A DNA stretch of 64,000 nucleotides from Escherichia coli (GTDB lineage Bacteria; Pseudomonadota; Gammaproteobacteria; Enterobacterales; Enterobacteriaceae), in the NCBI RefSeq assembly GCF_044324875.1, contig NZ_CP172185.1; one strand, 5' to 3'. The notes beneath the pieces were generated by a model. It did no database searches. It worked only from the letters and a program-made list of their open reading frames with translations, and was not told where the DNA came from. Every line of letters starts with the position of its first letter. The stretch's first letter is position 1. Both the position numbers and the translations under genes were made by a program. Positions 8,921 to 37,541 of the stretch are shown here, piece by piece.

Positions 8921-9397
8921 ATGATATTATTTGTTGGATTTTTGTTGATGGAAATTGTTATGCCTCAGATTAGCCGGACCGCACTGGTACCCTACAGCGC
9001 GGAGCAAATGTATCAGTTAGTGAATGACGTTCAGTCTTATCCTCAGTTTTTGCCGGGTTGTACCGGAAGTCGGATTCTGGAGTCCACTCCTGGGCAGATG
9101 ACTGCGGCGGTAGATGTCTCTAAGGCTGGGATCAGCAAAACGTTTACTACCCGCAACCAGTTGACCAGTAACCAAAGTATTCTTATGAATCTGGTGGATG
9201 GGCCGTTCAAGAAATTGATCGGTGGATGGAAGTTTACGCCGCTGAGCCAGGAGGCGTGTCGTATCGAGTTTCATCTCGATTTTGAGTTTACCAATAAGTT
9301 GATTGAACTCGCCTTTGGTCGCGTGTTTAAAGAGCTGGCGGCTAATATGGTCCAGGCTTTTACGGTTCGTGCGAAAGAGGTTTACAGTGCCAGGTAA
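8921..9397 (+). CDS. ratA: Ribosome association toxin RatA (PasT), SRPBCC-family
   Basis: 158-aa ORF; conserved synteny divergent from smpB. Confidence 0.8.
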
Positions 9398-9677
9398 AAT
9401 TGCCGTTGAGGTGGCTTATGCGCTACCTGAGAAGCAGTACCTGCAGCGCGTGACGCTGCAGGAGGGAGCGACGGTTGAAGAAGCTATTCGCGCCAGTGGT
9501 TTGCTGGAATTGCGTACCGATATCGATTTAACTAAAAACAAAGTCGGCATTTACAGCCGTCCGGCCAAACTGAGCGATACCGTGCATGATGGCGATAGGG
9601 TGGAGATTTATCGTCCTCTCATTGCCGATCCGAAAGAGCTGCGCAGGCAACGAGCAGAAAAATCAGCGAATAAATAA
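9387..9677 (+). CDS. ratB: RatB (YfjF), small protein co-transcribed with ratA
   Basis: GTG start at 9387 with AAAGAGG ribosome-binding site at 9375-9380; 96 aa; overlaps the ratA 3' end by 11 nt. The ORF track start at 9303 is an upstream extension. Confidence 0.75.
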
Positions 9678-9738
9678 CAGACAGAAAAAAGGTGCTCATT
9701 GAGCACCTTTTTTAACGTCTTTGAGAGCAACTTTATTA

Positions 9739-10080
9739 TTAGTTACCACTCAGCGCAGGTTTATTATCAATATTGGTCAACACCCCGCTACTATTAAAGG
9801 TCAGCGTCAGCGTTTGCTGCGTTACACCTTCATGACCTGGTTGCTGGCGGAAGACATAGAACCAGGTATTCGTACCAAATGGATCGGACATCAGCGGTGT
9901 ACCCAATGCGTACGCAACTTGTTGTTGCGTCATGCCAACACGTATTTTGGATACGTCGTTAGCGGTCAGATAGTTCCCCTGGTTGATGTCAGGACGGTAA
10001 ACCACTCGCTCCAGAGTGGAACAGCCTGCGGTCAACATCAATAGTACTGCTGCTGCAGCAGTCAGCGTTTTACAGCGCAT
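9739..10080 (-). CDS. bamE: Outer membrane protein assembly factor BamE (SmpA) lipoprotein
   Basis: 113-aa ORF with lipoprotein signal ...LTAGCSTLE. Confidence 0.9.
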
Positions 10081-10228
10081 AGTGATTTGATTCCTTTTCG
10101 GGCCCGAGCAGTACGTGGCTCATCTGTAATATGCCGATGATAATAGACCTTTCATCACTTTAAAACCTTTTGCTTTCCGGTCTTACGGCGTTTTGCTGTT
10201 TACTCTGACCGTGAAGCAGGAAAAAAGT

Positions 10229-11890
10229 TTACGCCGCAAGTAGTTCTTTCGCATTCGCCAGTGTGTTACGTGTGACTTCACTGCCACCAAGCAGGCGCGC
10301 CAGCTCTTGTAACCGCGCTTTTTTATCCAGGGATTGCATATGCGTTTCTGTCATCGCACCATCGGTTTCTTTGCTGACAAAATAGTGTTGATGACCACAT
10401 CCCGCGACTTGTGGCAAGTGGGTAACACACATCACCTGAGTTGATTCGCCAAGTTGACGCAGCAGTTTGCCGACAACTGCCGCTGTTGGACCGCTAATCC
10501 CTACATCCACTTCATCAAAAATCAGTGCCGGGGTTTCCATTTTACGCGCCGTGATGACCTGAATTGCCAATGCGATGCGGGACAATTCACCACCGGATGC
10601 AACTTTGGCAATAGGCTGCATTGGCTGACCTGGGTTGGTGGTTACCCGAAACTCAATACGATCAGCGCCGTCAGCGCCCAGGTGATGCTCGTCAAATTTA
10701 ATATCGATCGTAAACTGCCCATGTGGCATAGAGAGCGCATGCATACTTTTGGTGATCAGCTGTGCCAACTCATTTGCATAATGCTGGCGTTGCAGGTGTA
10801 ATGCGTGCGCGGTTTCCAGTGCCTGCTGATGATGTTTCGTTACCGCCAGCGCGAGCGTTTCTTGTGAGTCGGCCTGATCGTCCAGTTGCTGCTGTTCTTC
10901 CAGTAGCGACTGGTAATACTGTGGCAATGCCTCAGGGCTGACGTGATGTTTACGTGCCAGCGAAATCTGTTTTGAGATGCGCTGTTCAAGTTCAAACAGT
11001 CGGTTGGGATCGAGATCCAGACGATCGCAGTAGTGGCGCAGTTCATCGCTGGCTTCAGTAATCTGGATGGTAGCTTCTTCCAGCATATCAAGTACGCCGG
11101 ACAGTTTGCTGTCCATGCCAATCAATTCGCTCACCAGTTGTTTAGCCGTGTAAAGCTGACTTTGCAGGTTTGCGTCTTCACCGTCGGCCATTACTGCCAA
11201 TGCATTCTGGCTGGTAGTCAGCAATTGACCGCTGTTCGCCAGACGTTTGTACTCTTCGTCGATTTGCTCAAACTCTCCGGGCTGCGGATTAAATTCGTTA
11301 AGTTCTTTTAATTGGTATTGCAGCAGTTCTGCACGGGCGGCGCGTTCCTGACTTAACTGTTGATGATGCGCGAGGTCACGGCAGCTTTGATGCCACAACT
11401 GATAACGTGCGGTCATTTCCTGGAGTAGAGAGGTTTCATTGGCATAGCCATCAAGCAGGAATTTTTGGTGCTCGGGTTTGGTGAGTAACTGATGAGCGTG
11501 CTGACCATGGATCTGAATCAGCAACTGACCCAGTTCGCGCAGTTGTGAAAGAGGAACCGCTGTACCGTTGATAAAACCACGGGAGCGACCATCGCTGCTG
11601 ATTACGCGACGAAGCAAACATTCATGCCCGTCTTCAAGCTGGTTTTCTTCCAGCCAGCGCAGGGCCGCTGGCGTATCTTTCAGAGAAAAACGGGCGCACA
11701 GGTCGGCACGAGCAGCGCCGGTACGCACCATGTCGGCTTCAGCGCGACCACCGAGACAAAGGCCGAGGGCATCTATTGCAATAGATTTACCCGCGCCGGT
11801 CTCGCCAGTTATTACGGTCATGCCGCTATGAAAATCAATCTCAAGCTCACGAACGATAGCAAAGTTGCTGATGGTCAGTTGTGCCAACAT
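10229..11890 (-). CDS. recN: DNA repair protein RecN
   Basis: 553-aa ORF with N-terminal Walker A GETGAGKS and SMC-like coiled coil. Confidence 0.95.
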
Positions 11891-25936: not shown

Positions 25937-25959
25937 AGTGTTGCCTTTTTTGTTATCAA

Positions 25960-25990
25960 TAAAAAAGGCCCCCCGATTTGGGAGGCCTTA
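25960..25990 (-). terminator. pheA attenuator terminator hairpin
   Basis: On the minus strand: AAGGCCTCCCAAATCGGGGGGCCTTTTTTATTG, a GC-rich stem followed by a U-tract, between pheL and pheA. Confidence 0.6.
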
Positions 25991-26035
25991 TTGTTCGTCT
26001 TCGCATTCTGTTTCACACGACGAAACGCCTCCCAT

Positions 26036-26083
26036 TCAGGGGAAGGTAAAAAAGAATGCGAAGAAAAACGGTGTGTGTTTCAT
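26036..26083 (-). CDS. pheL: phe operon leader peptide (15 aa, 7 Phe)
   Basis: Minus strand ATGAAACACACACCGTTTTTCTTCGCATTCTTTTTTACCTTCCCCTGA encodes [15 protein letters not shown]. Under 60 aa, so absent from the ORF track. Confidence 0.85.
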   Translation of the reverse strand: [15 protein letters not shown]

Positions 26084-26186
26084 GTTTGTTTCCTTAAGTG
26101 ACTTTAGTACAGTACCCGTACTGTTTTCACGCTGTCAACAAAAAACGCGCCCGAAGGCGCGTTGGCGATACACTCAATATAAAGGA

Positions 26187-29379: not shown

Positions 29380-29441
29380 CCTAAAGAATCAAGACGATCC
29401 GGTACGCGTGATTTTCTTTTCACATTAATCTGGTCAATAAC

Positions 29442-29470
29442 CTTGAATAATTGAGGGATGACCTCATTTA
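29442..29470 (+). promoter_or_regulatory. Putative sigma-32 promoter of clpB
   Basis: CTTGAAT at 29442-29448 and CCTCATTTA at 29462-29470, about 40 nt upstream of the clpB ATG. Confidence 0.5.
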
Positions 29471-29508
29471 ATCTCCAGTAGCAACTTTGATCCGTTATGG
29501 GAGGAGTT

Positions 29509-32082
29509 ATGCGTCTGGATCGTCTTACTAATAAATTCCAGCTTGCTCTTGCCGATGCCCAATCACTTGCACTCGGGCACGACAACCAATTCATCGAACC
29601 ACTTCATTTAATGAGCGCCCTGCTGAATCAGGAAGGGGGTTCGGTTAGTCCTTTATTAACATCCGCTGGCATAAATGCTGGCCAGTTGCGCACAGATATC
29701 AATCAGGCATTAAATCGTTTACCGCAGGTTGAAGGTACTGGTGGTGATGTCCAGCCATCACAAGATCTGGTGCGCGTTCTTAATCTTTGCGACAAGCTGG
29801 CGCAAAAACGTGGTGATAACTTTATCTCGTCAGAACTGTTCGTTCTGGCGGCACTTGAGTCTCGCGGCACGCTGGCCGACATCCTGAAAGCAGCAGGGGC
29901 GACCACCGCCAACATTACTCAAGCGATTGAACAAATGCGTGGAGGTGAAAGCGTGAACGATCAAGGTGCTGAAGACCAACGTCAGGCTTTGAAAAAATAT
30001 ACCATCGACCTTACCGAACGAGCCGAACAGGGTAAACTCGATCCGGTGATTGGTCGTGATGAAGAAATTCGCCGTACCATTCAGGTGCTGCAACGTCGTA
30101 CTAAAAATAACCCGGTACTGATTGGTGAACCAGGCGTCGGTAAAACTGCCATCGTTGAAGGTCTGGCGCAGCGTATCATCAACGGCGAAGTGCCGGAAGG
30201 GTTGAAAGGCCGCCGCGTACTGGCGCTGGATATGGGCGCGCTGGTGGCTGGGGCGAAATATCGCGGTGAGTTTGAAGAACGTTTAAAAGGCGTACTTAAC
30301 GATCTTGCTAAACAGGAAGGCAACGTCATCCTGTTTATCGACGAATTACATACCATGGTCGGCGCGGGTAAAGCAGATGGCGCAATGGACGCCGGAAACA
30401 TGCTGAAACCGGCGCTGGCGCGTGGTGAATTGCACTGCGTAGGTGCCACGACGCTTGACGAATATCGCCAGTACATCGAAAAAGATGCTGCGCTGGAACG
30501 TCGTTTCCAGAAAGTGTTTGTTGCCGAGCCTTCTGTTGAAGATACCATTGCGATTCTGCGTGGCCTGAAAGAACGTTACGAGCTGCACCACCATGTGCAA
30601 ATTACTGACCCGGCAATTGTTGCAGCGGCGACGTTGTCACATCGCTACATTGCTGACCGTCAGCTGCCGGATAAAGCCATCGACCTGATCGATGAAGCAG
30701 CATCCAGCATTCGTATGCAGATTGACTCAAAACCAGAAGAACTCGACCGACTCGATCGCCGTATCATCCAGCTCAAACTGGAACAACAGGCGTTAATGAA
30801 AGAGTCTGATGAAGCCAGTAAAAAACGTCTGGATATGCTCAACGAAGAACTGAGCGACAAAGAACGTCAGTACTCTGAGTTAGAAGAAGAGTGGAAAGCA
30901 GAGAAGGCATCGCTTTCTGGTACGCAGACCATTAAAGCGGAACTGGAACAGGCGAAAATCGCTATTGAACAGGCTCGCCGTGTGGGGGACCTGGCGCGGA
31001 TGTCTGAACTGCAATACGGCAAAATCCCGGAACTGGAAAAGCAACTGGAAGCCGCAACGCAGCTCGAAGGCAAAACTATGCGTCTGTTGCGTAATAAAGT
31101 GACCGACGCCGAAATTGCTGAAGTGCTGGCGCGTTGGACGGGGATTCCGGTTTCTCGCATGATGGAAAGCGAGCGCGAAAAACTGCTGCGTATGGAGCAA
31201 GAGCTGCACCATCGCGTTATTGGTCAGAACGAAGCGGTTGATGCGGTATCTAACGCTATTCGTCGTAGCCGCGCAGGGCTTGCTGACCCGAATCGCCCGA
31301 TTGGTTCATTCCTGTTCCTCGGCCCAACGGGTGTGGGGAAAACTGAGCTTTGTAAGGCGCTGGCGAACTTTATGTTTGATAGCGACGAGGCGATGGTCCG
31401 TATCGATATGTCCGAGTTTATGGAGAAACACTCGGTGTCTCGTCTGGTTGGTGCGCCTCCGGGATATGTCGGTTATGAAGAAGGTGGCTACCTGACCGAA
31501 GCGGTGCGTCGTCGTCCGTATTCCGTCATCCTGCTGGATGAAGTGGAAAAAGCGCATCCGGATGTCTTCAACATTCTGTTGCAGGTACTGGATGATGGGC
31601 GTCTGACTGACGGGCAGGGGAGAACGGTCGACTTCCGTAATACGGTTGTCATTATGACCTCTAACCTCGGTTCCGATTTGATTCAGGAACGCTTCGGTGA
31701 ACTGGATTATGCGCACATGAAAGAGCTGGTGCTCGGTGTGGTAAGCCATAACTTCCGTCCGGAATTCATTAACCGTATCGATGAAGTGGTGGTCTTCCAT
31801 CCGCTGGGTGAACAGCACATTGCGTCGATTGCGCAGATTCAGTTGAAACGTCTGTACAAACGTCTGGAAGAACGTGGTTATGAAATCCACATTTCTGACG
31901 AGGCGCTGAAACTGCTGAGCGAGAACGGTTACGATCCGGTCTATGGTGCACGTCCTCTGAAACGTGCTATCCAGCAGCAGATCGAAAACCCGCTGGCACA
32001 GCAAATACTGTCTGGTGAATTGGTTCCGGGTAAAGTTATTCGCCTGGAAGTTAATGAAGACCGGATTGTCGCCGTCCAGTAA
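29509..32082 (+). CDS. clpB: Chaperone ClpB (Hsp100 disaggregase)
   Basis: 857 aa starting [18 protein letters not shown]; two AAA+ modules ([18 protein letters not shown]). The ORF track start at 29497 is 4 codons upstream. Confidence 0.95.
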
Positions 32083-32522: not shown

Positions 32523-34064
<1,542 letters not shown>

Positions 34065-34149
34065 CCTTAAAGAAGCGTACTTTGCAGTGCTCACACAGAT
34101 TGTCTGATAGAAAGTGAAAAGCAAGGCGTCTTGCGAAGCAGACTGATAC

Positions 34150-34225
34150 GTCCCCTTCGTCTAGAGGCCCAGGACACCGCCCTTTCACGGCGGTAACAGG
34201 GGTTCGAATCCCCTAGGGGACGCCA
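34150..34225 (+). tRNA. gltW: tRNA-Glu (UUC) in the 16S-23S spacer
   Basis: GTCCCCTTCGTCTAGAGGCCCAGGACACCGCCCTTTCACGGCGGTAACAGGGGTTCGAATCCCCTAGGGGACGCCA, 76 nt. Confidence 0.95.
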
Positions 34226-34418
34226 CTTGCTGGTTTGTGAGTGAAAGTCGCCGACCTCAATATCTCAAAACAGACTGTTAAGTCTTGTTTGAGATATTTG
34301 CTCTTTAAAAATCTGGATCAAGCTGAAAATTGAAACACTGAACAACGAAAGTTGTTCGTGAGTCTCTCAAATTTTCGCAACACGATGATGAATCGAAAGA
34401 AACATCTTCGGGTTGTGA

Positions 34419-37323
<2,905 letters not shown>

Positions 37324-37422
37324 ACAACGCCGAAGATGTTTTGGCGGATGAGAGAAAGATTTTCAGCCTGATACAGATTAAATCGACAGGTCATAACGAG
37401 ACGTGTTGATAAAACAGAATTT

Positions 37423-37541
37423 GCCTGGCGGCCGTAGCGCGGTGGTCCCACCTGACCCCATGCCGAACTCAGAAGTGAAACGCCGTAGCGCCGATGGTAG
37501 TGTGGGGTCTCCCCATGCGAGAGTAGGGAACTGCCAGGCAT
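37423..37541 (+). rRNA. rrfG: 5S ribosomal RNA
   Basis: TGCCTGGCGGCCGTAGCGCGGTGGTCCCACCTGACCCCATGCCGAACTCAG...CTGCCAGGCAT. Confidence 0.9.

Follow-up and report, generated by a model that had tools for sequence, protein, structure and literature searches.

The ratA and ratB genes of Escherichia coli share 11 nucleotides, and the sequence of this junction together with its conservation leads us to consider it likely that ratB translation is coupled to that of ratA by termination-reinitiation within one bicistronic operon. The locus was analysed within a 64,000-nucleotide stretch of E. coli DNA, here referred to as the window, and the coordinates of its features are collected in Table 1. The overlap was already annotated and published and the additions of the present analysis are confirmatory. 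An earlier note on this DNA, made from the sequence alone, had called the arrangement known rather than novel, which is correct as it is present in reference annotation, in the supplement of PMC10666635 and in bioRxiv 10.64898/2026.05.04.722385. The same note had placed the pair next to smpB-ssrA, and both of these minus strand genes indeed adjoin ratAB. Descriptions of the wider RnfH-START-SmpB-SmpA neighbourhood date from 2006 (PMC1779556) and 2014 (PMC4131195).

Table 1. Features of the ratAB locus and its neighbours, in window coordinates.
Feature	Position	Strand	Evidence
ypjA/ehaD autotransporter	2866-7569	+	annotation
ssrA (tmRNA)	7730-8092	-	Rfam RF00023, 292.8 bits; ARAGORN tag peptide ANDENYALAA
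smpB, divergent from ratAB	8307-8789	-	Pfam PF01668 and annotation
-10 element TGATATTAT of the ratAB operon	8922-8930	+	sequence reading, conservation, PMC11988751
ratA/pasT, 145 aa, START/Coq10-like lipid-binding protein	8960-9397	+	PGAP, Pfam, NCBIfam, PDB
Shine-Dalgarno GAGGT for ratB	9377-9381	+	sequence reading and comparison
ratA-ratB 11-nt overlap, ratB GTG to ratA TAA	9387-9397	+	sequence and annotation
ratB/yfjF/pasI, 96 aa, RnfH-family ubiquitin-like beta-grasp protein	9387-9677	+	Pfam, NCBIfam, PDB
hairpin terminator	9685-9713	both	terminator scan; RNA fold -20.7 kcal/mol, z=-7.0
bamE (smpA), convergent with ratB	9739-10080	-	Pfam PF04355 and annotation
recN	10229-11890	-	annotation

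The ratA frame ends in AAA GAG GTT TAC AGT GCC AGG TAA, with the stop codon at 9395-9397, while the ratB frame begins with GTG (9387-9389) and continues CCA GGT AAA ATT GCC GTT GAG. Counted from first base to first base, this GTG precedes the ratA stop codon by 8 nt, and 11 bases are common to both frames, so that the GTG start and the overlap length given in the earlier note are both borne out by reading the sequence. The same overlap is obtained from reference annotation, both from the PGAP/RefSeq annotation of a 100% identical strain (ratA at 8960-9397 and yfjF at 9387-9677 when converted to window coordinates) and from that of K-12 MG1655 (yfjF 2754008..2754298, ratA 2754288..2754764). The 951-nt locus (window 8790-9740) was found in 5425 of 5426 complete E. 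coli genomes and is 100% identical to that of other E. coli strains, its RatB being 98% identical to the K-12 protein. The 60-nt ratA-ratB junction was matched in 5424 of the 5426 genomes, with at least 99% identity in 4234 of 5425 records, and even the most divergent E. coli alleles (UTI89, GN04204) carry only synonymous changes in ratA and retain GAGGT, GTG and TAA.

The Shine-Dalgarno (SD) sequence of ratB, GAGGT, is situated 5 nt upstream of the GTG and is formed by the RatA codons Glu140 (GAG) and Val141 (GTT), within a Lys-Glu-Val stretch, which places the entire ratB initiation region within the last seven codons of ratA. Alignment of 80 diverse RatB homologues shows a conserved core, I.VEV.YA, that commences at residue 5 following a short variable N-terminus, and the Pfam RnfH match in RatB likewise begins at residue 5. 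It is very improbable that ratB instead begins past the ratA stop, at the in-frame GTG at 9411-9413, in which case the genes would not overlap at all; this codon is preceded by GAG, but the GAGG there abuts it with zero spacer, and a start at this position would delete residues 1-8 of RatB and with them the RnfH domain's conserved first strand (I.VEV). Moreover, PGAP and the K-12 annotation both select 9387, and most species lack any start codon downstream of the ratA stop, as detailed below. Candidate starts further upstream (GTG 9369, TTG 9315 and TTG 9303) were rejected, being unconserved and devoid of an SD. The supplements of an N-terminomics paper (PMC13245402) were searched for evidence on the RatB start site and none was found. 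By the comparative data GTG 9387 is established as the ratB start. Any ratA deletion or C-terminal tag disturbs the ratB ribosome-binding site.

To place the E. coli junction among those of its relatives, 80 loci from 80 species were fetched via the RatB alignment, representing the orders Enterobacterales, Pasteurellales, Alteromonadales, Vibrionales and Aeromonadales, plus a few Betaproteobacteria. In 71 of the 80, ratA is located immediately upstream of ratB on the same strand, and for 60 of these 71 there is not a single in-frame ATG, GTG or TTG from the ratA stop to the RatB core, which means that the ratB start must lie inside ratA. The overlap thus exceeds chance, as it is forced in 60 of the 71 species with adjacent genes. 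The RatB core codon lies 2 nt past the last base of the ratA stop in 44 loci, a spacing shared by the E. coli locus described here. When overlap classes were assigned by ranking candidate ratB starts on their SD, an overlap of 8 nt was the commonest (40 loci), followed by 11 nt (20 loci, including most of the Enterobacteriaceae sampled), 4 nt (4 loci, from betaproteobacteria and one Alteromonadales locus), 17 nt (2 loci, Citrobacter) and 20 nt (2 loci, Pectobacterium). Comparison of ...AGT GCC AGG TAA with ...AGT GCC TGA indicates that the 11-nt form is a one-codon variant, in both frames, of the commoner 8-nt overlap. These figures accord with the table of Huber et al. 2023 (PMC10666635 supplement), where E. 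coli ratA/yfjF is entered at -11 nt and the COG2867@COG2914 pair has a median of -8 nt (q1 -11, q3 -1, n=356 gene pairs).

The initiation signals themselves are also retained. GTG serves as the ratB start codon in 55 of the 71 loci and GAGGT accompanies the chosen start in 50 of the 71 species. At the SD position the Glu codon is GAG in 55 cases and GAA in 2, as compared to 280 GAG and 294 GAA at the other Glu codons of the same ratA genes (Fisher p=4.5e-14, not corrected for phylogeny), a bias which points to synonymous constraint on the internal SD. RatA residue 143 is Ser (AGT) or Arg (CGT) depending on the species, and GTG is preserved either way. Both the overlap and its internal SD therefore appear to be conserved by selection, given the 60 of 71 loci in which overlap is forced, the 50 of 71 with GAGGT and the 55:2 codon ratio.

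Some loci depart from this pattern. That of Acerihabitans arboris (locus L047, 2340-2500) has 157 nt between the ratA stop and the RatB core; should the conserved overlapping GTG with its SD be used there, RatB would acquire an Ala/Pro-rich N-terminal insertion of about 50 residues, and if it is not used this species no longer has the overlap. Nine species of Pasteurellaceae (Haemophilus, Rodentibacter, Aggregatibacter segnis, Pasteurella bettyae and Cricetibacter) possess ratB without ratA within 2.5 kb (loci L051, L054, L055, L056, L060, L061, L063, L067 and L070, with ratB at approximately 2501-2790 in most), and at several of these the next gene is adjacent or overlaps by 4 nt and is roxA/ycfD-like as judged by its N-terminal sequence only.

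With respect to transcription, ratA and ratB are co-directional and would be read as one bicistronic unit, extending from the TGATATTAT promoter to the hairpin terminator that follows ratB, and the overlap leaves zero intergenic space. A scan between the ratA and ratB starts returned no plus strand promoter, and the lone terminator-like match in the same interval (9263-9280, within ratA) has a weak 6-bp stem and occurs at chance frequency, whereas the terminator after ratB is strong. In the proposed mechanism a ribosome terminating at the ratA TAA would halt 8 nt past the ratB start and, since the ratB initiation region lies inside the last seven ratA codons, would still cover the ratB SD; the terminating ribosome or its 30S subunit could then be recaptured by the SD and restart at GTG 9387, whereby RatB synthesis would be tied to that of RatA. 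From the conserved overlap and the internal SD we infer that ratB translation probably depends on ratA translation, in agreement with the suggestion of translational coupling made in the earlier note.

The overlap could alternatively represent compact packing, with ratB translated independently by free 30S subunits that bind GAGGT and start at GTG 9387. We regard this as the less likely explanation, though one deserving some weight. The SD is good and optimally spaced from the GTG, and the predicted RNA around the ratB start lacks inhibitory structure: the predicted fold of 9340-9440 does not exceed shuffled sequence in stability (z=0.02) and contains no unusual structure masking the SD, for which reason an RNA structure that hides the SD and renders coupling obligatory was rejected. 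In addition, an overlap of -11 nt narrowly misses the window of -8 to +10 nt that was experimentally characterised by Huber et al. 2023 and taken as predictive of coupling (PMC10666635), most relatives having -8 or -4 nt. Against independent translation, the overlap varies among 4, 8, 11, 17 and 20 nt in gamma- and betaproteobacteria and yet the ratB start is kept within ratA, which suggests selection for proximity of stop and start beyond mere compaction. Furthermore, short overlaps in other E. coli gene pairs give tight termination-reinitiation coupling, which is lost at a spacing of about 20 nt (PMC10666635; review PMC12548453). Termination-reinitiation therefore continues to be our preferred reading. 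RatA and RatB copy numbers are similarly low, at about 30 and 50 per cell respectively (Schmidt 2015, as cited in PMC7424257); the usual stoichiometry rationale for coupling is at most tentative for this pair, as a RatA-RatB complex was not found by Zhang and Inouye (2011) according to the account given in a later paper.

Programmed frameshifting to a RatA-RatB fusion was also considered and rejected, as a reading of 9370-9397 by eye revealed no heptanucleotide slippery-site motif. Rare RatA-RatB fusion gene calls (P0004, P0007 and P0015) do occur in metagenome or draft assemblies; the frame switch is at a different position in each, so these are attributed to indels or sequencing errors and not to programmed frameshifting.

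The position of the operon promoter bears on the ratA start and on the interpretation of published deletions. K-12 annotation begins ratA at ATG 8921 (158 aa) while PGAP begins it at ATG 8960 (145 aa, Met14 of the longer form). The ATG at 8921-8923 supplies the TG of the extended -10 element TGATATTAT, meaning that the promoter overlaps the old start codon. Nearly all Enterobacterales loci have a TGnTAnnAT element 38-39 nt before the Met14 ATG, and several of the Alteromonadales loci have similar elements at -34 to -36. The Met1 extension is unconserved, its frame often being interrupted by a stop codon 5-6 codons ahead of Met14, and NCBIfam NF007999 covers residues 14-157 of the 158-aa form. 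These observations are consistent with a published sigma70 -10 box located inside the annotated ratA ORF, the 5′ end of the transcript being downstream of that box (PMC11988751). The native promoter makes only the Met14 form, and the toxicity ascribed to RatA belongs to an artificial Met1 form (PMC11988751). The real ratA start is ATG 8960 and the 158-aa annotation is probably wrong.

Deletions built on the 158-aa annotation would also remove the -10 box of the operon. RatB was reported to decrease with a log2FC of -6.75 upon deletion of ratA (bioRxiv 10.64898/2026.05.04.722385). Although such a loss would be expected from coupling, it is not diagnostic of it, since removal of the -10 box at 8922-8930 may explain the drop under independent translation of ratB. 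Published ΔratA phenotypes, as well as the reported loss of RatB, should be read with this possible promoter removal in mind.

The terminator hairpin downstream of ratB is flanked by A-runs and T-runs on both sides and is common to the convergent ratAB and bamE transcripts. A further terminator-like hairpin, followed by a T8 run, was noted on the plus strand at 8886-8902, in the divergent smpB-ratA intergenic region just 5′ of the ratA -10 box. It has no plus strand gene ahead of it to terminate, and may be due to chance or represent an AT-rich promoter-upstream element. On the other side of smpB, ypjA/ehaD directly adjoins ssrA (7569-7730), the CP4-57 prophage that occupies the tmRNA site of K-12 being absent. 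An Rfam search of 7000-10500 identified tmRNA as the sole RNA gene. Elsewhere in the window Rfam matches comprise an rRNA operon with tRNA-Glu (32523-37539), the Phe leader (25959-26084, minus strand), RyfD (29390-29528), the AsrC antisense RNA (55619-56450, minus strand), rncO (59234-59448) and OhsC (62860-62936, minus strand).

RatA matches Pfam PF03364 over its full length (E=1.3e-38, 132.5 bits with a cut-off of 23.4, covering all 126 profile positions), scores 304.8 bits against NCBIfam NF007999 (threshold 258) and is similar to PDB 1T17 (E=1.7e-19), which makes it a member of the Coq10/START (Polyketide_cyc) family. In agreement with its description as a Coq10-like factor for ubiquinone (PMC7424257; bioRxiv 10.64898/2026.05.04.722385), RatA is a Coq10-like ubiquinone-binding protein or chaperone and not a toxin. 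The earlier note had referred to RatA/PasT as a toxin-like ribosome-association factor, which is true to the older literature but is contradicted by PMC7424257 and PMC11988751.

The idea of ratA-ratB as a type II toxin-antitoxin module, whose overlap would keep the production of toxin and antitoxin under joint regulation, is scarcely credible. It draws on earlier papers reporting toxicity of over-expressed RatA/PasT and rescue by PasI, and RefSeq and NCBIfam still name the protein a type II toxin-antitoxin system toxin. That toxicity, however, requires the non-physiological Met1 form, while the native promoter yields Met14 only (PMC11988751; bioRxiv 10.64898/2026.05.04.722385). Growth inhibition was not seen by Fino et al. 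and a ratB deletion is viable, and, again as relayed by the later paper, neither a RatA-RatB complex nor neutralisation was seen on plates. RatA possesses a START/Coq10 fold, with human COQ10 and Caulobacter CC1736 having been tested as its functional equivalents (PMC7424257), and the two genes are not obligate companions, ratB occurring alone in the nine Pasteurellaceae species and ratA alone in many bacteria (PMC7424257). RatA thus belongs to no growth-arresting family and its native form is not toxic. The toxin-antitoxin interpretation has already been largely refuted and persists only in database product names, among them the outdated RefSeq name 'type II toxin-antitoxin system toxin RatA'.

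RatB, for its part, is a member of the RnfH family (Ub-RnfH beta-grasp), matching Pfam PF03658 over its full length (E=1.9e-35, 121.4 bits with a cut-off of 23.7, covering all 83 profile positions) and NCBIfam NF002490 (154.7 bits, threshold 75), as well as PDB 2HJ1 (E=3e-28) and RnfH chain 8AHX_H (E=1.4e-13). Beta- and gammaproteobacteria have retained an overlap of 4 to 20 nt through a very long span of evolution, the ratB ribosome-binding site being set in the C-terminal codons of RatA, and this raises the thought that RatB is a stoichiometric and perhaps co-translationally assembled partner of a RatA ubiquinone shuttle, a notion we hold to be improbable. By way of example, such a partner might serve to dock RatA at a membrane redox complex, whether of Rnf/Rsx type or another, and RatB would, if so, have a role in quinone trafficking. 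A positive two-hybrid result has been reported for an RnfH-like/RnfB-like pair of Legionella, this being the sole reported positive, with none for E. coli Rsx. The presence of ratB alone in nine Pasteurellaceae species suggests that RatB may also have a role independent of RatA.

In comparison with known systems, the locus corresponds to ratA (b2619) and yfjF-ratB (b2618) of E. coli K-12 and to pasT/pasI of UPEC, with the same genes, gene order and 11-nt overlap and with smpB-ssrA and bamE as neighbours; nothing of substance differs. The K-12 locus carries the CP4-57 prophage after ssrA, where ypjA/ehaD directly follows here. RatA belongs to the same Pfam family as mitochondrial Coq10 and Caulobacter CC1736, is homologous to PDB 1T17 and has been reported to be functionally equivalent to these proteins (PMC7424257). 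Most Coq10/RatA homologues are solitary, and only in beta- and gammaproteobacteria are they paired with an RnfH gene (PMC7424257). RatB shares family PF03658 with RnfH of the Azotobacter Rnf complex (8AHX chain H) and with HI0395 (2HJ1); unlike the RnfH-type genes of rsx/rnf operons, ratB adjoins ratA and smpB. With regard to translationally coupled overlapping gene pairs of the termination-reinitiation class (Huber et al. 2019, 2023), the ratA/yfjF pair is marked 'CMPLX not' in the Huber table (PMC10666635), that is, it is not known to encode a heteromeric complex, and its E. coli overlap of 11 nt differs from the canonical 4, 1 or 8 nt. Like those pairs, ratAB is co-directional and borne on one transcript, has the start and SD of its second gene within the ORF of the first, and displays an overlap that is conserved across hundreds of species.
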